Shown: piece after piece, positions 2,938-43,764 of the stretch
How positions within the stretch are numbered: position 1 is the first letter of the stretch
Layout: every line of letters begins with the position of its first letter
From: Escherichia coli
Lineage (GTDB): Bacteria; Pseudomonadota; Gammaproteobacteria; Enterobacterales; Enterobacteriaceae
Assembly (NCBI RefSeq): GCF_013122565.1
Contig: NZ_CP053258.1
Length of the DNA stretch: 64,000 nucleotides
Direction: 5' to 3' (one strand)
Notes under the pieces: generated by a model
What the model saw: the letters and a program-made list of their open reading frames with translations, nothing else
Database searches by the model: none
Told to the model about the DNA's origin: nothing
Translations under genes and position numbers: made by a program

Positions 2938-4008
2938 ATGGCAGGACTGAAATTACAGGCAGTAACCAAAAGCTGGGATGGCAAAACCCAGGTGATTAAA
3001 CCGCTGACCCTTGATGTGGCGGATGGCGAATTTATCGTGATGGTCGGGCCGTCTGGCTGCGGGAAATCGACGCTGCTGCGCATGGTTGCCGGGCTGGAGC
3101 GGGTGACCGAAGGCGATATCTGGATCGACCGCAAGCGTGTCACCGAAATGGAGCCGAAAGATCGCGGGATTGCGATGGTGTTCCAGAACTACGCGCTTTA
3201 TCCGCATATGAGTGTTGAAGAAAACATGGCGTGGGGGCTGAAAATTCGCGGCATGGGCAAGCAGCAAATTGCCGAACGGGTTAAAGAAGCGGCGCGTATT
3301 CTGGAGCTGGACGGCCTGCTCAAACGTCGCCCGCGCGAGCTATCTGGCGGTCAGCGCCAGCGTGTGGCGATGGGCCGCGCGATTGTGCGCGATCCGGCGG
3401 TGTTCTTGTTTGATGAGCCGCTCTCTAACCTCGATGCCAAGCTGCGCGTGCAGATGCGTCTTGAACTGCAACAGCTGCACCGTCGCCTGAAAACGACTTC
3501 ACTCTACGTTACTCATGATCAGGTTGAGGCGATGACGCTCGCCCAGCGAGTAATGGTGATGAACGGCGGCGTTGCCGAACAGATTGGCACGCCAGTGGAA
3601 GTTTACGAAAAGCCCGCCAGCCTGTTTGTAGCGAGTTTTATCGGCAGTCCGGCGATGAACCTGCTGACAGGCCGCGTGAATAATGAAGGCACGCATTTCG
3701 AACTGGACGGCGGTATTGTGCTGCCGCTAAACGGTGGCTACCGTCAGTATGCCGGGCGTAAAATGACTCTCGGCATTCGCCCGGAACATATAGCGCTAAG
3801 CTCGCAGGCAGAAGGTGGTGTGCCGCTGGTGATGGACACGCTGGAGATCCTCGGCGCTGATAACCTGGCGCACGGACGCTGGGGCGAACAGAAGCTGGTG
3901 GTACGGCTGGCGCATCAGGAGCGCCCGACGGCAGGCAGCACGCTGTGGCTGCATCTGGCGGAAAATCAGCTGCATCTTTTTGATGGTGAAACAGGACAAC
4001 GAGTATGA
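2938..4008 (+). CDS. ugpC: sn-glycerol-3-phosphate ABC transporter ATP-binding protein
   Basis: Walker [13 protein letters not shown] signature LSGGQRQR, Walker [11 protein letters not shown]. Start taken at MAGLKLQ (2938) rather than the longer ORF start 2899. Confidence 0.92.
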
Positions 4009-25550: not shown

Positions 25551-28016
<2,466 letters not shown>

Positions 28017-28039
28017 GTTCACTAAAAAACAGAACGGGG

Positions 28040-28070
28040 CCAAAGGGTCCCGTTTTTTTTCGCCATCATT
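28040..28070 (+). terminator. intrinsic terminator after glgP
   Basis: Hairpin aacggggccaaagggtcccgtt followed by a run of 8 T. Confidence 0.7.
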
Positions 28071-28132
28071 TCGGAAAAGTGTCCAGAAGGGGCAAGGGGA
28101 CTCGGGGAGTATAATTTCGCCATTCAGAAAGA

Positions 28133-29650
28133 ATGGAAAGAATAATGCAAAACAGAAAATGGATTTTGACCTCGCTGGTAATGACTTTTTTCGGCATCCC
28201 CATACTGACGCAATTTTTGGCAGCGGTTGTTGCTATGCTGGGGGGCGGGCTTGCCGCTATTCTTGAGGTTTGCAATTTACTCTTTACGCCAGCAATTTAT
28301 CTTCTACTCAACGTCTTTATGCTGACTCTGGGGGCGATAATAATATTTTTCTCTGGTCGCGTGTGGGCGGGCGATAGTGCACCAGAAAAAAAAGAAATAG
28401 CCGTCTGGCGACAATGTCTTTTTTTAGTACCTGCTTTATTCACCCTGGTTGGCTGGATAATCACGCTACATCTGGCAGATTATCAATTTCGCCAGATGGG
28501 AGACGGTTGGTTGGCAAACCTTATGCTTCCCTGGTTGGGCGTTTTTTTAGTCTCATTAGTGGGTGGTGAGTACTGGTGGATAGTCATTATACCCGTTGGC
28601 GCGCATATCAGTTTTTCGCTGGGGTACGGTTGGCCGACCAGACATCTTTTAACGGGCACGTCCGGGTTACGTTGCCGTAATTCCCTCTTGTTTATCCTTC
28701 TCATGCTTGGTTTTGTCGCCGGTTACCAGGCTTATTTATATAAACAGCTTAATCCCGGCGTCGGTGTGCGTGAAAATATTGATACCTGGGCCTGGCGACC
28801 CGATAAACTCAATAATCAACTGACACCACTGCGTGGTAAACCGCAAATTCAGTTCACGCAAAACTGGCCGCGACTCGATGGTGCTACGGCGGCGTACCCA
28901 ATTTATGCCTCTGCATTTTATGCTTTAAGCGTTATACCGGAAGATTTTCACGCCAGGAAATATCTGGAGAACTCTCGTACCCCCGATGCGTATAACAGGA
29001 TTGTTAAAGGTGATGCCGATATTATTTTTGTGGCGCAGCCCTCCGGTGGGCAGAAAAAACGCGCTGAGGAATCGGGCGTCACTTTGCTGTACACGCCTTT
29101 TGCCCGTGAAGCGTTTGTTTTCATCGTCAATGCAGATAACCCGGTTAATTCCCTGACCGAACAACAAGTGCGTGACATCTTCAGTGGCGCAATTACCAAC
29201 TGGCGCACGGTTGGCGGTAACGATCAGGAGATCCAGACCTGGCAACGCCCGGAAGACTCAGGTAGCCAGACGGTGATGCAGGCGCAGGTCATGAAAAATG
29301 TACGTATGATCTCGCCGCAGGAGACCGAAGTGGCTGAAATGATGGGAGGGATGATTAAAGTTGTTGCCGAATACCGTAATACAAACAACTCAATAGGCTA
29401 CACCTTCCGCTATTACGCAACGCAAATGAATACCGATAAGAATATCAAATTGTTAGCGATTAACGGTATTGCACCGACTGCGGAAAACATCCGTAACGGC
29501 AAATATCCCTATATCGTCGATGCCTTTATGGTAACGCGGGAAAATATGACGTCAGAAACGCAAAAACTGGTGGAATGGTTTTTAACGCCGCAGGGGCAAA
29601 GCCTGGTGGAAGATGTGGGTTATGTGCCGATGTATCCAACAATGAAATAA
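28133..29650 (+). CDS. membrane-embedded protein with C-terminal PstS-like periplasmic binding domain
   Basis: 505 aa. N-terminal ~200 aa contains about 5-6 hydrophobic helices; C-terminal ~290 aa resembles PstS-family binding proteins (GATAAYPIYASAFY, WQRPEDSGSQTVMQ, VGYVPMYP). Start could be 28145. Confidence 0.55.
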   Translation: MERIMQNRKWILTSLVMTFFGIPILTQFLAAVVAMLGGGLAAILEVCNLLFTPAIYLLLNVFMLTLGAIIIFFSGRVWAGDSAPEKKEIAVWRQCLFLVPALFTLVGWIITLHLADYQFRQMGDGWLANLMLPWLGVFLVSLVGGEYWWIVIIPVGAHISFSLGYGWPTRHLLTGTSGLRCRNSLLFILLMLGFVAGYQAYLYKQLNPGVGVRENIDTWAWRPDKLNNQLTPLRGKPQIQFTQNWPRLDGATAAYPIYASAFYALSVIPEDFHARKYLENSRTPDAYNRIVKGDADIIFVAQPSGGQKKRAEESGVTLLYTPFAREAFVFIVNADNPVNSLTEQQVRDIFSGAITNWRTVGGNDQEIQTWQRPEDSGSQTVMQAQVMKNVRMISPQETEVAEMMGGMIKVVAEYRNTNNSIGYTFRYYATQMNTDKNIKLLAINGIAPTAENIRNGKYPYIVDAFMVTRENMTSETQKLVEWFLTPQGQSLVEDVGYVPMYPTMK

Positions 29651-29675
29651 CCCTTGAGAGAAGGGAATCAGGGCG

Positions 29676-30677
29676 ATGAATAAATTCACAGAAGTTTTAC
29701 TGCTAGGTGCGGTATTACTGGCGGGATACGCCGACCGGGAAGCATACTATAACAGCGTCAGGGAAGAAGAGAGTCATGGACTGACTTCTCTGCGGGGACA
29801 GCCTGAATTACGTTACAGCGAAGATTGGTCAAGATGGCCCAGAGTGTACGGCGCTACCGCCTTATACCCCCTGTATGCTTCTGCATATTATGAATTAGTA
29901 CCGGAGCCGAAAGATGCGGATCAAACCTCACTGGCCTGGCAGGCGTATGGTCTGCAGCAAACCCGAACAGCTGAAGCCTACGATAATCTGATTAAAGGTA
30001 CTGCGACTGTTATTTTTGTCGCGCAACCTTCTGAAGGGCAGAAAAAACGTGCAGAAGAAGCGGGAGTTAAGCTGAAATATACCGCGTTTGCCCGCGAAGC
30101 CTTTGTCTTTATCGTTGATATCAAAAACCCGGTGAATTCACTCAGCGAACAGCAGGTCAAAGACATTTTTAGCGGTAAAGTGAGTCGCTGGAATAAAGTC
30201 GGTGGCAGCGACGAACGCATAAAAGTGTGGCAGCGCCCGGAAGATTCCGGTAGCCAGACGGTAATGCAAGAGTTAGTTATGCAAGGCACACCGATGTTAC
30301 CCGCTAAAAAATCAACCATGGTTGATCTTATGGGTGGGTTAATTACCGAAGTCGCCGACTATCAAAACACGCCATCTTCAATCGGTTATACCTTTTATTA
30401 TTATGTTACGCGTATGAATAGTAATATGCTCAAAATGCGCAAGCAGATCAAATTATTAGCCATCAACGGCGTCGCCCCCACTGAGGAAAATATTCGCAAC
30501 GGATCTTATCCCTATATTGTGGACGCCTATATGGTGACCCGTGAAAATCCAGCACCGGAAACGCAAAAGTTTGTCGACTGTTTTTTAAGCCCGCAGGGGC
30601 AACAGTTGGTGCAGGATGTGGGGTATGTGCCTTTATACCCGATTACGAACTCTCGTAAAAAGGATTTTGAAAAATGA
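29676..30677 (+). CDS. secreted PstS-like periplasmic binding-domain protein, paralog of the preceding gene
   Basis: 333 aa with N-terminal signal peptide; shares GATALYPLYASAYY, WQRPEDSGSQTVMQ and VGYVPLYP with the upstream gene. Confidence 0.55.
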   Translation: MNKFTEVLLLGAVLLAGYADREAYYNSVREEESHGLTSLRGQPELRYSEDWSRWPRVYGATALYPLYASAYYELVPEPKDADQTSLAWQAYGLQQTRTAEAYDNLIKGTATVIFVAQPSEGQKKRAEEAGVKLKYTAFAREAFVFIVDIKNPVNSLSEQQVKDIFSGKVSRWNKVGGSDERIKVWQRPEDSGSQTVMQELVMQGTPMLPAKKSTMVDLMGGLITEVADYQNTPSSIGYTFYYYVTRMNSNMLKMRKQIKLLAINGVAPTEENIRNGSYPYIVDAYMVTRENPAPETQKFVDCFLSPQGQQLVQDVGYVPLYPITNSRKKDFEK

Positions 30678-30952
30678 AAATATCAATAAGTAAACTTAGT
30701 GAATTTAAAAAGGTTTCTTTATTATTTCTGGCCTACTCATTATTTATTACTGCTGGGTGTGTCAGTCATCAGAATGTTACTGAAAGTATAAAAGAAAAAC
30801 AGAGTTATAATATTACAAGGATACAGGGGAAACCCGTATTACAAATTCCCGAAAAGGAAGCAACGTGGTTGACCGTGGCGAGGGCCACTACGTTATATCC
30901 ATTGTACTCTTCGGCATATCACATGGTTATAGTTGAACCCAGTGGACACTGA
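30674..30952 (+). pseudogene. truncated third PstS-like paralog with lipoprotein signal peptide
   Basis: 92 aa; lipobox ITAGC, then only the first ~45 aa of the binding domain (IQGKPVLQIPE...ATTLYPLYSSAYH) before a stop; ATGA overlap with the upstream gene; very AT-rich DNA follows. Confidence 0.5.
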
Positions 30953-31027
30953 TTCTGATAATATAGAAAAATCAATGATTAACGTCTCTGTTAATATGGG
31001 TATTACTCAGTAAAGGTAAGAAAAATT

Positions 31028-31219
31028 ATGCTGAAACGATTATTTTTTATTATTCTTATTTTATCCGCAACGGGATGTTCTATTGTTGACACCTCTCTGG
31101 AGAAAAAAGACTTACTTAATTTATCTGTATATGAAAATAATATTGTTGATAATTCAGTGTTAATAAGAGTTGTAGCCAGTCAAAAGGTAAAAGAGACCTG
31201 GTATATATGCAACGAATAA
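31028..31219 (+). CDS. small putative lipoprotein (hypothetical)
   Basis: 63 aa; signal peptide with lipobox LSATGC; in the AT-rich block. Confidence 0.35.
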   Translation: MLKRLFFIILILSATGCSIVDTSLEKKDLLNLSVYENNIVDNSVLIRVVASQKVKETWYICNE

Positions 31220-31671
31220 TAGAAAAAGCTTTAACGGTTTTGCTTATGATTTACGCCGGATCAGCAGCTGCCGAAGGTAAAGTGAACGATTTATGCCACA
31301 TAGGTGATCGTGTAGATAAACTTGAGATTACAAATTATCCTCATGATTACGAGTCGCTAGTTGCAGTTGATGAGAAGCGATTGAATGAAATTTATAAATA
31401 CAAGGTTGAAATTACCTATCTTGATAATAAAGAAAGTAAAAAAATTGTTGAACTATTACAAATGGATTATGCGGAACAAGAAGAAAATGTTACTGATGTG
31501 AGGTGGCGGGTGAATATCACTTCATATGGAAATAAAAAATGTGATATCTATTTTGATGGTTTTGGCTTATGTGGAAAAATTAATGGTGAGAATGTCTGTT
31601 TCAGGCATAACGAAATGATACGGTGGATTGAGTCTCATATTTCTGTATTTCTACATAGTGTTAACGAATGA
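31207..31671 (+). CDS. small secreted hypothetical protein
   Basis: 154 aa; signal peptide ending AGSAAAEG; AT-rich codon usage. Confidence 0.4.
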   Translation: MQRIIEKALTVLLMIYAGSAAAEGKVNDLCHIGDRVDKLEITNYPHDYESLVAVDEKRLNEIYKYKVEITYLDNKESKKIVELLQMDYAEQEENVTDVRWRVNITSYGNKKCDIYFDGFGLCGKINGENVCFRHNEMIRWIESHISVFLHSVNE

Positions 31672-31690
31672 ATGTGAAAAAGGAATTTAT

Positions 31691-32143
31691 ATGCAATTTT
31701 TATTTAAAAATAATAAATTATTTTTTATAAGGATAAGGTTAGTTTCGGTTATTTTATTTTTATTTATGAGTACTTCCTTGTATGCTAAAAATCCATGTGA
31801 AGGACTTAAAGGTGATTTACCTGCGGCGCAGTTAATTCCACTTAAGAAAAATATTGCCAGGCAGTTGAATTCTGAAATGGAACAGGTAGTAGAAGTTAAT
31901 AAAGTTGAAATATTATCTTTCGATACCTTGCAGGAATGGTCAATTGTTGGTGTCGCTACCGGAGTATCAGATGATGCATTGTTAATTTATAAAGGGAATA
32001 TCACTAAAACTGATTATGTGGCATTATTTGGAGGCGCTGCAAGTATTAACGATGACATGATCCAATGGATAAACCAGAAAGCGCCGGGAATTCCAGATAA
32101 GTTGGCACAATGTTTTGCGTGGGGAGCTGTATATCGTGATTGA
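31691..32143 (+). CDS. small secreted hypothetical protein
   Basis: 150 aa from MQFLFKNNK with aagga Shine-Dalgarno 8 nt upstream; signal peptide ending LYAKNP. Confidence 0.4.
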   Translation: MQFLFKNNKLFFIRIRLVSVILFLFMSTSLYAKNPCEGLKGDLPAAQLIPLKKNIARQLNSEMEQVVEVNKVEILSFDTLQEWSIVGVATGVSDDALLIYKGNITKTDYVALFGGAASINDDMIQWINQKAPGIPDKLAQCFAWGAVYRD

Positions 32144-32161
32144 TAATAAAAGGACAACCAA

Positions 32162-32869
32162 ATGGAATTAGTTGATACGTTATTTGCAAGCCTCGCCGGT
32201 ACTGATCCTTTCACAGGCGTGGATATTACGATTGCCAAATGCGAATCGGCATATTGGGCCGAGGGCATTGTTCAGCTGCTCATTAACCAGGCCCTGGATG
32301 AAGGGGAAAAGTTCGTCGGTGCTGCCGGTCTTGAGGGATTGCTTCGATATGATGTCACATTAAATATTGGCTTAACGTCCAGCAATGTATGGCCGGGGTT
32401 TTCCCTCGATACCGCCACCATTGGCCGTCTTTGTGCCTGTGGTGCTGACTTTGGATTTGACCCTTATATCAGTGATGTACCAGATGTTCAATGTGACCTG
32501 AACACGACAAATGACTTCACCGTTCAATTTACGGCGATGCTCAACCCGGAGCGGGCGATCATAGCAAAGCGCCCGCTTAAAAAATGTGACTCCTGGATTG
32601 AGGATGTCTATATCTTTCAGGTCTTTAAAGAAGCCTGGAAGTTTCATAACGATAACAGCTTACGAGGATTTCGCGATAAGCAGGCTGAACTGAAACTCTA
32701 CGCGCGTCATTACTCAGTGGAAAATTGTATAGAGGAAAGCTGCCGTGACTGTAATAGTTGTATTCGGCCCAGCTTTTCCCTTTCTCGTAGTGCCATTATT
32801 CGCCTGAACGCGGCGAATGCTCGTTTTGTTTATCAACCGTTTACACGCGACCAGCGGGCGAGGGGGTAA
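32162..32869 (+). CDS. hypothetical protein, Cys-rich C-terminal part
   Basis: 235-aa ORF with no recognisable family; stop lies 2 nt before the next start. Confidence 0.4.
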   Translation: MELVDTLFASLAGTDPFTGVDITIAKCESAYWAEGIVQLLINQALDEGEKFVGAAGLEGLLRYDVTLNIGLTSSNVWPGFSLDTATIGRLCACGADFGFDPYISDVPDVQCDLNTTNDFTVQFTAMLNPERAIIAKRPLKKCDSWIEDVYIFQVFKEAWKFHNDNSLRGFRDKQAELKLYARHYSVENCIEESCRDCNSCIRPSFSLSRSAIIRLNAANARFVYQPFTRDQRARG

Positions 32870-32871
32870 TT

Positions 32872-33660
32872 ATGCAACCCAGTCCCGCCATGCAGAATAT
32901 TATTGCCCATGCCTGGGCGATATTTCATTTTTATCCTGCACCGCAACAGTTCAATATTTGCGTTCCTTGCTGTGTCAGCGAAGAGGTCGCGCAGGCGTTA
33001 CGGCAAACACCGTTACGTCAATTAACCGTTGAAATGATATATGAATGGAACAGTAGCGCGAGGCCTTTTGAACAACAGAATGATGAAATCCGTTACCTCC
33101 TTCCGAGACTGCTGGAATTACTGGCTCACGGTCATTGTCCTGCCATAAATGAAGAGTTATGCCTGAAACGTATTGGCGCTATTTCCCTGGACACCTGGCA
33201 GCCGGAGGAGCGTGATGTACTTACCGATTTTTCCCGCCAGTATATTCGCGATTTATTACTTACCCCGACATTGACCGATCTTGAATCTGCCCTCGTGATG
33301 TTTCATTTTGCCGGACTATCTATAACGGCTTTATTAGATGAGGCGCTGAACACGCCTGGCTATTGGGCTATCGCTTCGCTGGCCTATTTTTTGTATATCA
33401 AGCGTCCAAACGGCGAATTACGTAACGCGTTTATCTCACGCAAGCCGGATGGTGAAGTGATAACGCAGCAAATTAACGCCTGGATTGCGCAATCATGTCA
33501 CGCGCTGGCAGAACGCGCCGCGGCGGCGATTGAATGCTCGCCATCCCTTCCCGGCGGTGGACACACGGAGTACAGTGTTGACCTGAGCTACCTGATTGAC
33601 GAAAGCCTTTGTGCGCTTGTTGATTATCAATTGCTCTGGACGATGGACCGTAATGAATAA
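32872..33660 (+). CDS. hypothetical protein, paralog A of a tandem pair
   Basis: 262 aa beginning MQPSPAMQ; shares N-terminal Cys motif, NDEIRYLLPRL and other blocks with the next gene. Confidence 0.45.
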   Translation: MQPSPAMQNIIAHAWAIFHFYPAPQQFNICVPCCVSEEVAQALRQTPLRQLTVEMIYEWNSSARPFEQQNDEIRYLLPRLLELLAHGHCPAINEELCLKRIGAISLDTWQPEERDVLTDFSRQYIRDLLLTPTLTDLESALVMFHFAGLSITALLDEALNTPGYWAIASLAYFLYIKRPNGELRNAFISRKPDGEVITQQINAWIAQSCHALAERAAAAIECSPSLPGGGHTEYSVDLSYLIDESLCALVDYQLLWTMDRNE

Positions 33661-33671
33661 GGAGATTCACA

Positions 33672-34448
33672 ATGCAACCCAGCCCCGCCATGCAGGCATT
33701 AATTGAGCAGATTTATCATATTTTTCGTCGTTATCCGGTGCCGTCGAGATTTCATGTTTGTTGTCCTTACTGCTTTAGCGAAGAACAACAACAAGCCTTA
33801 AAAGGGGTTTCACTGCGTGCCATACCTTTCCCTTTATTACATGCCTGGGGAACAAGTATTGGCCCTAACCCACAAAATGATAATGAGATTCGCTATTTAT
33901 TACCCAGATTGTTTGACTTTATTGCCCAAAGGCAATTTCCAGGCATTTATGAAGGCTGCTGTTTACAGAGAATAGCAGAAGCAGATAACCAGAACTGGCG
34001 AGCGGATGAACTACAAATAATTAGCGATTTCGCCTATTTATATATGCAGGATTGGGTGTCGGTTAAGGAAGTTGTGGAGCTGGAAATAATATTAGAAATG
34101 TTTTATCGCGGTGGTATAAAGATTGAACCCTTACTTGACGCTATTATGTCCATTTCCGGTTACTGGCCGACGGCGTCAATGGCATGTTTGCTCTGGCGTA
34201 ACAGTAAAGAATACGTCGAAAATAGCGAGTTTGAGCAGAGTGATGATGATAAAACCATTACCACCCAAATCAATACCTGGGCTAGAAATAATCATCCTTT
34301 GCTGAAAGAACGCGCGCGGCAAGCGATTGAGAACCCGCTAAAACAGCCCGAACAGGGCACACGATATCAGGTCTGGGAAGACGACTGGATGATTGATGAG
34401 TGTTTGTGCGCAATGTATGACGCATCATCCGAATCATCAGGACAATAA
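33672..34448 (+). CDS. hypothetical protein, paralog B of a tandem pair
   Basis: 258 aa beginning MQPSPAMQ; paralogous to 32872..33660. Confidence 0.45.
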   Translation: MQPSPAMQALIEQIYHIFRRYPVPSRFHVCCPYCFSEEQQQALKGVSLRAIPFPLLHAWGTSIGPNPQNDNEIRYLLPRLFDFIAQRQFPGIYEGCCLQRIAEADNQNWRADELQIISDFAYLYMQDWVSVKEVVELEIILEMFYRGGIKIEPLLDAIMSISGYWPTASMACLLWRNSKEYVENSEFEQSDDDKTITTQINTWARNNHPLLKERARQAIENPLKQPEQGTRYQVWEDDWMIDECLCAMYDASSESSGQ

Positions 34449-34450
34449 AG

Positions 34451-34633
34451 ATGAATAAAATCAAACTTTATATTCCTCCGCTATTTCTCGGCTTTGTTAT
34501 TGTGCCGCTGTTGGTGTGGCCGACGGTGGTTGCGCTGGCGGCTTTTGGTATCACGCTGAGTTTTCTGGGGGAGTTACTGTTCTTAATCCCGATCATAGTC
34601 CGACGTATGTCACTTCTGGAAGCACAACTTTGA
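34451..34633 (+). CDS. small hydrophobic membrane protein, possibly the N-terminal part of a stop-interrupted gene
   Basis: 60 aa with two predicted transmembrane helices; same reading frame as the following ORF, separated by a single TGA. Confidence 0.3.
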   Translation: MNKIKLYIPPLFLGFVIVPLLVWPTVVALAAFGITLSFLGELLFLIPIIVRRMSLLEAQL

Positions 34634-34666
34634 TTATCGGCTGAATATACGCTTGTTTTCTGTGCA

Positions 34667-35050
34667 ATGGTGGGCGTTGGTTGGCAATTCTCTCGCAGAA
34701 CGTCACCTGAATTAAAAAACAGACTGCATTTTTGGCTGGTCTTTACACCGGTTTATTTCTGGTTGCTTCTGTGGAATATCATTTTCTATATCGGGCCAGC
34801 GAAAAATGCATTGCTGGAAAATATCCGCAATTTCTTTTTAACAATTGTCTGGTTACCGCTGAATTTTTCGCCACTTTGGTCCCAACCGTGGACTGACTTT
34901 GTCGGTCCAATAAGCGCACAGCTTGGTTTTGCGTTGGGATATTATTGCCAGTGGCGTAGCAAAAATAGAAGCCAGGGGCAGAAGTGGGGTGAGTGGGGAA
35001 CGTGTCTTAGTTTTGTTACGTTGGGTATGATGGCATGGGTTTTGCGGTAA
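34667..35050 (+). CDS. hydrophobic membrane protein, possibly the C-terminal part of a stop-interrupted gene
   Basis: 127 aa with predicted transmembrane helices; in frame with 34451..34633. Confidence 0.3.
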   Translation: MVGVGWQFSRRTSPELKNRLHFWLVFTPVYFWLLLWNIIFYIGPAKNALLENIRNFFLTIVWLPLNFSPLWSQPWTDFVGPISAQLGFALGYYCQWRSKNRSQGQKWGEWGTCLSFVTLGMMAWVLR

Positions 35051-35263: not shown

Positions 35264-36769
35264 TTACGACGCCAGCGACAACTTCTGCTGCGTATACTCC
35301 ACCAGCCACTGACTCACACGAGATTGTTGATCCGCATTCAGCCACATGCCTTGTTTTGTGCGACGCCACAGGGCATCGTCGGCGCGGCGGACCCATTCGT
35401 GATCCACCAGGTATTTCAGCTCCGCTTCGTAGAACTCATGACCGAAATCCTCCCCGAGGTCGCTTATCGCCCCTGCATTGCCGAGCAGCAGTTCGCTGTT
35501 GCTGCCGTAAGTGCGCGCGTAGTGACGTGCCAGCGATTCAGTCAGGAATGGATAGCGACGGCGCAGACGAGCGGCATAATCGTCGCGGTCACCTTCAATG
35601 GCACCACCCGGCAGCACGCTCTCTTTCGTCCACGCCGGGCCAATACCCTGATAATACGGCGTCAGTTTTTCCAGCGCATGTTCCGCCAGTTTGCGGTAGG
35701 TGGTCAGCTTACCGCCGAATACCGACAGCAGCGGTGCTTTGCCGTTTTCATCATGGATATCAAGGGTGTAATCACGGGTAATAGCCTGCGGCGAGTCGGA
35801 CTCATCATCACACAGCGGACGCACACCGGAGTAGGTCCAGACGATATCATCACGGCTTAGCTGCTTTTTAAAGTGCGTGTTATACACTTTCAGCAGGTAA
35901 TTGATTTCACTCTCTTCAATCTTCACTGCTTTCGGATCACCTTTGTATTCCACATCGGTGGTGCCGATGATTGAAAACTCGTCCATCCACGGGATCACGA
36001 ACACAATACGTTTATCTTCGTTTTGCAGAATGTAGGCTTGCTTCTGGGTATGCACGCGTGGTACCACAATATGGCTGCCTTTGATCAGGCGAATGCCATA
36101 AGGTGAGGGCAGATGCATCCCGTCGTCGAAGAACTGTTTCACCCACGGGCCGGTGGCGTTAACCAGGCCGCGCGCTTGCCAGCTATATTTTTTGCCGGTA
36201 TCGATATCTTCCGCTTCCACAATCCACAGGCCGTTTTCGCGGCGAGCAGAGGTGGCGCGAGTCCGAGTAAGCACTTCGCCGCCTTTACGCACCACCATCT
36301 GGGCGTTGGCGAGTACCAGACGGGCGTCGTCTACCCAACAGTCAGAATATTCGAATCCGCGCTTAATTTCCGGTTTTAACACTGAGTTTGCGCCAAAACG
36401 CAAACCGGTTGATCCCGGCAGGCTGGTGCGTTTACCCAGATGATCGTACATAAACAGACCAATGCGAATCATCCACGCCGGGCGCAGATGCGGACGATGC
36501 GGCAGGCGAAAACGCATCGGGAAGGCGATATGAGGGGCCATTTTCAGTAGCACTTCACGTTCAGCCAGCGCCTCGCTGACCAGGCGGAATTCATAGTGCT
36601 CAAGGTAGCGCAGGCCACCGTGAATGAGTTTTGAACTGGCGGAAGAGGTCGCACAAGCGAGATCCTGCGCCTCCAGCATCAGCACGGATAAACCGCGTCC
36701 AGCGGCGTCTGCCGCGATACCAGCACCATTGATGCCGCCCCCTATCACAATCAGATCTTTGGTTTCCAT
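35264..36769 (-). CDS. glpD: aerobic glycerol-3-phosphate dehydrogenase
   Basis: 501 aa from METKDLIVIGGGINGAG (FAD-binding Rossmann motif). Confidence 0.93.
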   Translation of the reverse strand: METKDLIVIGGGINGAGIAADAAGRGLSVLMLEAQDLACATSSASSKLIHGGLRYLEHYEFRLVSEALAEREVLLKMAPHIAFPMRFRLPHRPHLRPAWMIRIGLFMYDHLGKRTSLPGSTGLRFGANSVLKPEIKRGFEYSDCWVDDARLVLANAQMVVRKGGEVLTRTRATSARRENGLWIVEAEDIDTGKKYSWQARGLVNATGPWVKQFFDDGMHLPSPYGIRLIKGSHIVVPRVHTQKQAYILQNEDKRIVFVIPWMDEFSIIGTTDVEYKGDPKAVKIEESEINYLLKVYNTHFKKQLSRDDIVWTYSGVRPLCDDESDSPQAITRDYTLDIHDENGKAPLLSVFGGKLTTYRKLAEHALEKLTPYYQGIGPAWTKESVLPGGAIEGDRDDYAARLRRRYPFLTESLARHYARTYGSNSELLLGNAGAISDLGEDFGHEFYEAELKYLVDHEWVRRADDALWRRTKQGMWLNADQQSRVSQWLVEYTQQKLSLAS

Positions 36770-36880
36770 GCTGCCCTCATTCACTTTCGTTAAAGCTCAT
36801 AAATGTTCGTTATCGAACATATTAGCAAAGAATCGCGCTTTAGGTAACATTGAAAAAACATTTTAGAGTGATATGTATAA

Positions 36881-43009: not shown

Positions 43010-43495
43010 TTACTCCAGAGTAATGGGATACAGTAAGGTAAGTGACTGGAATGGTGAAGGTACAAAGGCATACTTCAGATAGAAATTGCGTACTGAATCG
43101 TCTAAAGCATGAACAATGAGCGCACGAACCCCTACCTGTTGAGCTATGGACATTGTGCGATAGACTGCATCTTTCAACAATGCGACGCCCAGCCCTTTAC
43201 CTGCCCAGGCTTGATCAATTGCCAGTCTGCCTAATACGACAACAGGCAACGATTCGGGAGCATTACGTCGCATGGCTCCAGGGGTCAAATTACGTTGAAT
43301 ACTGCCTGTAGAAAGGCAGTAATAGCCGATTACCTGACGGGTATTGGCAATACAGATAACGTAAACACGAGACAGACCGGAGCTGTGATTTTTTAACTCT
43401 TTCTTTTTTAGCCATTCATTCATCCCGTGATCGGAACAGCAAAAGTCAGCCAGATTATGTTCAGACGTTAGGGGAGTAGGAGGCGTTATTCCCAT
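43010..43495 (-). CDS. GNAT-family acetyltransferase toxin of a type II toxin-antitoxin pair (TacT/KacT/ItaT-like)
   Basis: 161 aa; GNAT acetyl-CoA motif VLGRLAIDQAWAGKGLGVALL; 10-nt overlap with the upstream DUF1778-type gene. Confidence 0.7.
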   Translation of the reverse strand: MGITPPTPLTSEHNLADFCCSDHGMNEWLKKKELKNHSSGLSRVYVICIANTRQVIGYYCLSTGSIQRNLTPGAMRRNAPESLPVVVLGRLAIDQAWAGKGLGVALLKDAVYRTMSIAQQVGVRALIVHALDDSVRNFYLKYAFVPSPFQSLTLLYPITLE

Positions 43496-43764
43496 GGCGA
43501 TTTACGATTCATCAACGCGTTAATTTTGGCCTGACGCTCAGCAGTGATGGGGGCGTCCAGGGCAGCCAGAAATGCATCGTATTGCTCGTCATCAACGATG
43601 AATAGTCGTTGATCTAATAAGATGTCTTGCGCTTCACGGCATGCGGCATCCAGCATAAAATCAGTGCGCGATTTTGCGACCAGATTCGCTGCCATATCAA
43701 TCAGGTCACGCTGTGAGGCTTTCGCCCTGATATTGATTGGCGCTTCTTTGCTTTCCGGTTTCAT
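43486..43764 (-). CDS. DUF1778-type (ribbon-helix-helix) antitoxin partner of the GNAT toxin
   Basis: 92 aa; N-terminal PINIRAKASQRDLIDMAANL typical of TacA/KacA-like antitoxins; first in the operon. Confidence 0.7.
   Translation of the reverse strand: MKPESKEAPINIRAKASQRDLIDMAANLVAKSRTDFMLDAACREAQDILLDQRLFIVDDEQYDAFLAALDAPITAERQAKINALMNRKSPWE

Follow-up and report, generated by a model that had tools for sequence, protein, structure and literature searches.

What do three genes for PstS-like binding proteins do on an Escherichia coli chromosome when no transporter gene lies beside them? The question is raised by a 64,000-nucleotide stretch of contig NZ_CP053258.1 (assembly GCF_013122565.1), here called the window, in which three open reading frames (ORFs) at positions 28133-30952, genes 1, 2, and 3, encode domains related to the phosphate-binding protein PstS. 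We propose, with moderate confidence, that these ORFs represent a distinct, transporter-independent ("orphan") subfamily of predicted PstS-type oxyanion binders that are retained in the cell envelope and have a dedicated membrane module.

Gene 1 (28133-29650, plus strand; 505 amino acids (aa), or 501 aa from an alternative start at 28145) matches the PBP_like_2 family (Pfam PF12849) over residues 250-485 with an E value of 2e-29, and gene 2 (29676-30677, plus strand, 333 aa) matches the same family with an E value of 7e-32. The binding domains of genes 1 and 2 are 59.6% identical across 287 aa (E 2e-120), and gene 3 (30674-30952, plus strand), the 92 codons left of a second lipoprotein paralog and now a pseudogene, shares 34% identity with gene 2 across 82 aa (E 4e-15). 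By these scores the homology of all three ORFs is judged to far exceed chance, as the initial annotation of this DNA had claimed from the letters alone. That annotation also listed two sequence blocks common to the three proteins; the first is indeed found in all of them, but the second, WQRPEDSGSQTVMQ, is present in genes 1 and 2 only, as gene 3 stops before it. The AlphaFold2 (AF2) model of gene 1, built on an alignment of 27 homologs, has a mean predicted local distance difference test (pLDDT) score of 86.9. In the PDB, each of its 40 best Foldseek hits is a phosphate-binding protein, at target template modelling (TM) scores of up to 0.78, in agreement with the PstS-like fold assigned earlier, and the PDB sequence search matched PstS proteins only. 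The identity between gene 1 and E. coli PstS is about 16% in the structural alignment.

The periplasmic PstS-like domain of gene 1 (28880-29587, plus strand) carries a conserved predicted anion pocket. Residues T252, A253, T283, R372, S376, G377, and S378 are invariant or nearly so across the 27 homologs; they align (hhalign probability 91%) with T10, F11, S38, R135, S139, G140, and T141 of a provisional E. coli PstS reference sequence. Against this provisional reference, seven of the eight phosphate-contact positions of PstS (T10, F11, S38, D56, R135, S139, G140, and T141) appear to be conserved in kind, the conserved contact at Ala253 being a backbone position.

Although RefSeq labels these genes "PstS family", their scores set them apart from canonical PstS. 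Against TIGR02136, gene 1 scores 120.1 bits and gene 2 130.1 bits, both below the curated cut-off of 206.6 bits, and against TIGR00975 gene 2 scores 17.4 bits with a cut-off of 205 bits. The gene 1 subfamily has an invariant signature of its own, DGATA-YP-Y, FVAQPS, REAFVF, QRPxxSGSQT, and IGY[ST]FRYY. This signature and the pocket motifs are kept from enterobacteria to Viridibacillus, Treponema (spirochaetes), Clostridia/Firmicutes, Planctomycetaceae, and Mollicutes, and they are distinct from those of the canonical pstS genes found in the same one-genome-per-species scan. That scan covered 59 loci with flanks of up to 10 kb and was analysed with our own ORF, hidden Markov model, and motif scripts; a score of at least 200 bits against the family profile defined subfamily membership, which gave 50 loci from several phyla.

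In none of these 50 loci does a pst-type ATPase gene lie near the subfamily gene. Two of the 50 have an ORF with ATPase motifs within 10 kb: in one locus it encodes a fused double ATPase and lies upstream at a distance of about 5 kb, in the other it is on the opposite strand, and neither is pst-like. Four low-scoring canonical pstS loci served as a positive control, and in each of them an ATPase-like ORF on the same strand lies some 2 kb downstream. No linked permease or ATPase was found in the Escherichia, Klebsiella, Salmonella, Limnobaculum, or Leclercia loci, and the sole ABC ATPase-like ORF of the window is 24 kb from the three genes. Gene 1 orthologs of about 500 aa are present in many Enterobacteriaceae, and in 13 enterobacterial species a member of the gene 1 family sits between glgP and glpD without transporter genes. 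The initial annotation was therefore right that no ABC permease or ATPase is adjacent and that a role as transporter component is unlikely, and the decayed transporter operon that it had named as the contrary case is not what the relatives contain. In Leclercia sp. (loci L007/L008, 8625-9449), a polyphosphate kinase 2 gene follows the membrane-fused PstS-like gene; it is the sole phosphate-metabolism neighbour among all loci.

How, then, are these proteins held in the envelope? Complete members of the subfamily usually start with hydrophobic segments or a lipoprotein signal: three to seven segments in most enterics and one to five in most others, with none called in a few. Gene 1 begins with about 200 hydrophobic residues that AF2 models as six helices, which supports the earlier statement that a multi-helix membrane domain is fused to its binding domain. 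We place this module at residues 1-206 (28133-28750, plus strand) and, from the model and the loop charges, give it five or six helices. The counts of Lys plus Arg in the module loops of the 27 homologs are 2.3, 0.4, 3.4, 0.8, 0.1, and 4.4, a pattern that favours a cytoplasmic N-terminus, an odd number of passes (five), and a binding domain on the outside. The cytoplasmic loops of gene 1 are about 18 aa long. Among 1.84 billion representative proteins, the module profile has 122 matches. Judged by length, these are fusions of about 470-530 aa to the binding domain, stand-alone proteins of about 200 aa, and pieces or forms with an internal deletion. Outside the enterics the helix number varies, with zero to five hydrophobic segments called, and the fold search related the module to no known membrane family or ABC transmembrane domain.

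The stand-alone form is represented in the window as well. The last gene of the island (34451-35050, plus strand) is a membrane-only paralog of the gene 1 module, interrupted by a nonsense mutation (TGG>TGA at 34631-34633), so that the three paralogs first listed were not the full set; this fourth one had been overlooked. Intact membrane-only orthologs of 199-201 aa score 36-41 bits against the gene 1 membrane profile (40.6 bits in hmmsearch for the 199-aa ortholog), while the best of 500 shuffles reaches at most 6.5 bits and no other ORF of the window comes close. They align colinearly with the gene 1 module, and their AF2 model matches, in AFDB50, solely the membrane domains of "PstS family" proteins. 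The homology is visible only by profile search; when the membrane-only ORFs were compared with gene 1 by plain BLASTP, no significant match resulted. The membrane-only allele of the window has 76% protein identity to that of locus L012, which is otherwise about 98% identical across the compared stretch, and the drop implies a likely recombination breakpoint near the island end.

For gene 2, the initial annotation had proposed a plain, soluble signal-peptide form, and here the codons tell another story. Codon 18 (29727-29729) is TAC, giving Tyr18 in the context LLAG-Y-A (TAC GCC), so that the invariant Cys at +1 of a lipobox is missing. Its E. coli orthologs (L001, the O157 locus L011, and L016) read LLAG-C-V (TGT GTC), a canonical lipobox, and the lipobox cysteine is present in 13 of the 16 short homologs (about 314-350 aa) that were found with gene 1. 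Read in this way, gene 2 is a member of the lipoprotein branch that has lost its acylation site (Cys>Tyr). The G-Y-A motif could serve signal peptidase I, and the localisation of the protein is uncertain between cleavage at AGYA/D and a signal anchor.

Gene 3 was described as a lipoprotein version truncated early in the domain, and this description stands: by reading, it has a lipobox-type ITAG-C, and its stop falls early in the binding domain. The full-length relative that the initial annotation suggested looking for is the 326-aa protein P0101 of E. coli TA054, with which gene 3 shares 68% identity over all of its 92 residues. The P0101 gene sits at the equivalent place of the TA054 locus, preceded by a membrane-fused gene and a middle paralog. 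Compared with TA054 (L020 8277-9363), the window lacks 1,087 bp (about 1.09 kb) that include the rest of gene 3, with the deletion junction at about 30950-30965; no remainder of the gene was found downstream in the window. A search for full-length relatives with gene 3 as query returned gene 3 itself only, P0101 having surfaced among the gene 1 matches. Residue 29 of P0101 is Gly in place of the lipobox cysteine (ISG-G). Together with Tyr18 of gene 2, this substitution hints at repeated loss of the acylation site in the gene 2/3 branch.

The anchors themselves have a common source. Residues 184-269 of gene 1, which comprise the last helix and the linker, align with residues 15-89 of gene 3, and an AGY or AGC motif falls at the same place in all three proteins. 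On this alignment, the signal peptides of genes 2 and 3 are homologous to the last membrane helix of gene 1, with one shared origin. In a neighbour-joining tree, 13 of the 15 lipoprotein forms make up one clade nested among the enteric membrane-fused forms, and a second small lineage stands apart; monophyly of all lipoprotein forms has a bootstrap value of 16/100. The helix alignment and the nested clade lead us to the view that the lipoprotein paralogs arose when the fused form lost its first helices, a loss that possibly happened more than once. The three anchoring modes noted earlier did not originate independently and come down to two classes in evolutionary terms, one polytopic-fused and one lipoprotein, with a mutated lipobox in addition.

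Selection on the island was gauged from pairwise Nei-Gojobori ratios of nonsynonymous to synonymous substitution (dN/dS) for whole genes or domains. The ratio is 0.12-0.17 for gene 1 (0.18-0.24 for its membrane module and 0.07-0.12 for its binding domain). Gene 2 has a ratio of 0.07-0.09 and the membrane-only gene one of 0.24-0.32. Synonymous divergence (dS) is 0.26-0.95 for island genes, compared with 0.06-0.21 for glgP and glpD. The proteins of the island are under purifying selection, with deep alleles and gene turnover. The diversifying pressure suggested at the outset is borne out as turnover of gene content and deep allelic divergence, but not as diversification of sequence: diversifying selection is rejected at the whole-gene level by pairwise dN/dS values of 0.07-0.32 throughout.

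The turnover is plain in a sample of 5426 complete E. coli genomes. With presence of gene 1 and of the membrane-only gene defined as at least 80% coverage, gene 1 is present in 3349 of them (about 60%), including O157:H7, and the membrane-only gene in 3824; gene 2 occurs in 889. The block from gene 3 to the 171-aa ORF (30674-32160) reaches at least 80% coverage in none of the 5426, its best coverage being 34% in one genome, with short, weak matches only in 48 others. Decay is frequent too. The K-12 pseudogene yzgL consists of the first ~234 nucleotides (nt) of gene 1 and the last ~65 nt of the membrane-only gene, joined at a 13-nt microhomology (3143-3432 in the K-12 locus L010, corresponding to 28133-28366 and 34986-35050 of the window), the whole interior of the island being gone. 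Other genomes have forms with an insertion sequence (IS), a frameshift, or an internal deletion, and the window has the gene 3 deletion and the nonsense codon. Because of the K-12 deletion, the IS insertion, the internal deletions, and the two lesions of the window, we take the island to be dispensable: it is a non-essential, frequently remodelled, operon-like array.

From these observations a scheme can be proposed. Gene 1 would be the ancestral enterobacterial form, fused to a dedicated inner-membrane module of five or six helices, and genes 2 and 3 would be derived lipoprotein paralogs that retained only the last module helix as a signal peptide. Gene 2 went on to lose its acylated cysteine, gene 3 is cut short by a deletion, and the stand-alone module carries its nonsense codon. 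The ligand on which the domain is predicted to close is orthophosphate or another oxyanion of the phosphoryl type, bound outside the inner membrane at its surface in gene 1 or at the end of a lipid anchor in the gene 2/3 branch; the proteins would not feed an importer but would act by binding and retention, or through the membrane module that belongs to them. Since the island is remodelled, non-essential, and collects orphan genes of the Rhs-immunity type (see below), its context speaks for a role in a niche or in competition and less for housekeeping phosphate uptake.

Several points weigh against this proposal. The absence of linked transporter genes is compatible with use of the housekeeping PstCAB in trans. 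Asp56 gives E. coli PstS its selectivity for phosphate over sulfate, and in the alignment to the provisional PstS reference the corresponding position holds Ala, Gln, or Pro, with no acid; because of this, the ligand could be another tetrahedral oxyanion or a phospho-compound. The predictions of topology also differ, as the six helices modelled by AF2, combined with a cytoplasmic N-terminus, would place the binding domain inside. Moreover, the constraint on the module (dN/dS of about 0.2) and on the membrane-only paralog suggests a task beyond anchoring, and a pure "binder" model leaves the constraint on the membrane module unexplained. Finally, literature searches on yzgL, on PstS proteins that are orphans or anchored in the membrane, on a link of PstS to Rhs immunity, and on YbbD, STM3528, and Sll0540 turned up neither relevant papers nor expression data. 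It is tempting to go further and to propose, quite tentatively, that the domain and the membrane module, fused or separate, form an unrecognised two-part envelope device, either a ligand-gated module for phosphate-type anions or immunity proteins of a new periplasmic/inner-membrane class that serve in competition between bacteria; such a device would have been overlooked because of the K-12 deletion that left the yzgL pseudogene.

The surroundings of the three genes bear on these alternatives. The window is an E. coli-type chromosome, with a glgP 99.0% identical to E. coli glgP. Upstream of the island are glgC, glgA, and glgP (ending at 28016), and downstream are glpD (35264-36784, minus strand), glpEGR, and rtcRBA. 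Gene 1 heads a 7-kb string of tightly packed same-strand ORFs that fills the interval between glgP and glpD from 28133 to 35050. A terminator-like hairpin with a T-run (28033-28060, plus strand) 3′ of glgP and a perfect TATAAT (28110-28115, plus strand) between this hairpin and gene 1 were read directly from the sequence, and their succession suggests that gene 1 has its own promoter. A consensus promoter/terminator scanner had neither among its listed sites, which were no more numerous than in shuffled controls, and inspection by eye of the region 5′ of gene 1 gave no convincing Pho box.

Gene 3 is followed by a low-GC cassette (31028-32143, plus strand) of three small exported-protein ORFs, one of 63 aa and lipoprotein-like, one of 154 aa, and one of 150-171 aa. 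The GC content is 0.30-0.37 in the block formed by the gene 3 remnant and the cassette (30674-32143) and 0.30-0.34 in the cassette ORFs, compared with about 0.48 in the neighbours. The 154-aa ORF (31207-31671, plus strand) has 46% identity (E 3e-46) to the "RHS element protein dsORF-h1", which directly follows an RHS core protein gene in E. coli AR_0374; by this likeness it would be an orphan gene of the Rhs-immunity type with no toxin nearby. No Rhs core, PAAR, or toxin fragment was found in the window island among ORF translations or by family searches, the Rhs-motif scan having covered related loci. The 154-aa ORF has no tblastn match at E 1e-4 to a Salmonella lipoprotein that follows a metallopeptidase toxin, and a direct pairwise comparison of the two gives a weak match (25% identity, E 1e-8). 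The 171-aa ORF has a relative of 34% identity in a Salmonella array of Rhs orphans. This array (S. enterica L018, 3200-10900) contains orphan Rhs C-terminal fragments, a PAAR-like ORF and an HExxH toxin-like ORF, an Ntox34 fragment, and a HEAT-repeat protein, and embedded in it are two PstS-like lipoprotein paralogs, one of them directly after an orphan Rhs C-terminal fragment. The pair of Rhs fragment and lipoprotein paralog recurs near PAAR and VgrG fragments in another contig. A search for an intact toxin with this Salmonella Rhs C-terminal domain returned orphan fragments only, a 62%-identical relative of the fragment has no binding-protein gene nearby, and the PADLOC defence models gave no meaningful match.

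The next gene in the string encodes a cytoplasmic protein of 235 aa whose N-terminal head is YbbD-like (32162-32869, plus strand; N-terminus against NCBIfam PRK09781, E 2e-5). Homologs lie 3′ of gene 1 in E. coli (92-95% identity), Klebsiella (58%), and Salmonella (N-terminus only), and related ORFs lie downstream of a gene 1 homolog in six species; this is the most conserved neighbour of gene 1, and no other neighbour is conserved. Two tandem paralogs of 262 and 258 aa follow (32872-33660 and 33672-34448, plus strand), which have no family match. They are 36% identical, and both begin with MQPSPAMQ and have, close to this end, CxxC-like motifs rich in cysteine; other E. coli islands contain one or both of them. 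PDB sequence searches with the 235-aa and 262-aa proteins gave no match, nor did Pfam on the concatenated downstream ORFs. Farther away, between rtcA and malT, the window has a TacAT-type toxin-antitoxin pair (43010-43764, minus strand), in which a gene for a GNAT acetyltransferase of 161 aa overlaps one for a TacA-like antitoxin of 92 aa (PF08681, E 4e-18).

What other functions might be considered? Genes 1 and 2 could encode accessory binding proteins that dock on the housekeeping PstC/PstA encoded elsewhere. Several binding proteins sharing one permease is an established arrangement for other ABC importers, and extra PstS paralogs serve the Pst importer in cyanobacteria, mycobacteria, and streptococci; the PstS-type fold, the largely conserved pocket, and the polyphosphate kinase 2 gene of Leclercia would suit such a role. 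We nevertheless consider it unlikely, given scores of 120 and 130 bits, well below the PstS cut-off, an identity to E. coli PstS of only about 16%, a subfamily signature kept across phyla apart from the canonical pstS of the same organisms, linkage to pstCAB in none of the 50 loci, and the lack of a Pho-box-like sequence upstream by eye. Nor are the binding proteins of Gram-negatives known to carry multi-helix anchors. The idea that the island is what remains of a phosphate-transporter operon after loss of its permease and ATPase genes finds some comfort in the frequent pseudogenisation at the locus, but it is scarcely credible: no remnant of a permease or ATPase exists in any related locus, and gene 1 is under purifying selection in an arrangement kept in 13 species. 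We regard this last idea as effectively refuted by the relatives, which have neither transporter remnants nor adjacent pstCAB-like genes.

A sensor or receptor, in which the membrane module would relay ligand binding to a partner in the cytoplasm or the membrane, was the role put forward by the initial annotation. The membrane-tethered domain, the family-specific and constrained module, and the split arrangement of lipoprotein and membrane-only paralogs in one operon, as in O157:H7, are what such a device might look like, but positive evidence for it did not emerge, and we think it improbable. PBP_like_2 is the only domain found and the protein ends with it in the periplasm, so that there is no output domain; the cytoplasmic loops have a length of about 18 aa; and no kinase, cyclase, or chemoreceptor is among the conserved neighbours. 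The lipoprotein branch has no module at all, and because the zero to five hydrophobic segments of the non-enteric members are unrelated, membrane signalling cannot be the general mechanism of the family. Immunity or defence is a further alternative: the lipoprotein paralogs, possibly together with gene 1 and the membrane-only protein, would neutralise an envelope-acting toxin or sequester a toxic phospho-compound, and the island would be an orphan immunity array. For this speak the 154-aa ORF, whose homolog lies in the immunity position downstream of Rhs, with no toxin present; the two Salmonella paralogs within the orphan Rhs/PAAR-like/HExxH/Ntox34 array, and the recurrence of the pair beside PAAR and VgrG fragments; and the deep alleles, presence/absence turnover, and frequent decay. 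A parallel is offered by the type VII toxin loci described in PMC9484751, where strings of tandem, non-identical immunity paralogs are remodelled by recombination and deletion between copies, and where, in the same account, the system also has a membrane-depolarising toxin with its own immunity protein. Yet an anion pocket that is invariant across phyla fits a small conserved ligand and not a fast-evolving toxin, and the low dN/dS argues in the same direction. Add to this the failure to find an intact toxin with the associated C-terminal domain, the 62%-identical fragment relative without a binding-protein gene, the syntenic and apparently vertical inheritance of gene 1 in 13 species, and the lack of PADLOC matches, and immunity too seems an unlikely explanation for the family.

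The orphan-binder reading, which we therefore retain, has consequences for annotation. Gene 1 is found also in Salmonella, Klebsiella, and other enterics, and databases label it a phosphate ABC-transporter component; because it is a predicted orphan binder with its own membrane module, this label is probably wrong. It would seem that a widespread family escaped study because K-12 deleted the gene 1 island. If a ligand and an output are found, the result would be either an envelope function of a new kind that is related to phosphate or a protein class of the immunity type that is equally new, and the K-12 pseudogene yzgL would be explained. In addition, the Tyr-for-Cys change of gene 2 and the descent of lipoprotein signals from the last helix of a polytopic protein make a clear example of anchor interconversion.

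How does this family compare with known systems? In the type VII immunity arrays, as far as PMC9484751 describes them, tandem non-identical paralogs at one locus, reshaped as copies recombine or are deleted, are a feature shared with the island, but the proteins and the secretion system are other ones, and immunity in the island is only putative. The island also resembles orphan immunity arrays of Rhs and type VI secretion systems, which are likewise same-strand strings of small, variable, partly low-GC genes; a Rhs downstream-ORF homolog lies within it, and the Salmonella paralogs of genes 2 and 3 lie inside such an array. It differs from them in that its binding proteins have a conserved small-molecule pocket and low dN/dS.

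Tethered binding domains are well known from Gram-positive ABC importers, where they occur as lipoproteins or as fusions of the GlnPQ/OpuA type. These importers and the gene 1 family have in common that a lipid anchor or a fusion keeps the binding domain at the membrane; in contrast, the gene 1 module matches no ABC transmembrane domain or known fold, no ATPase is nearby, and the host is Gram-negative. A further comparison is with PstS of the PstSCAB importer itself (TIGR00975, TIGR02136; PDB 4gd5, 4q8r, 9l8j, 1twy, and 2abh). The class II Venus-flytrap fold is shared, and genes 1 and 2 appear to have in common with PstS the anion-contact positions Thr/backbone, Ser/Thr, Arg, and Ser-Gly-Ser/Thr. 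The gene 1 family differs in falling below both cut-offs, in lacking a linked pstCAB and an acid at the Asp56 position, and in having FVAQPS, REAFVF, SGSQT, and FRYY motifs of its own, together with multi-helix or lipid anchors and a place in a variable island.

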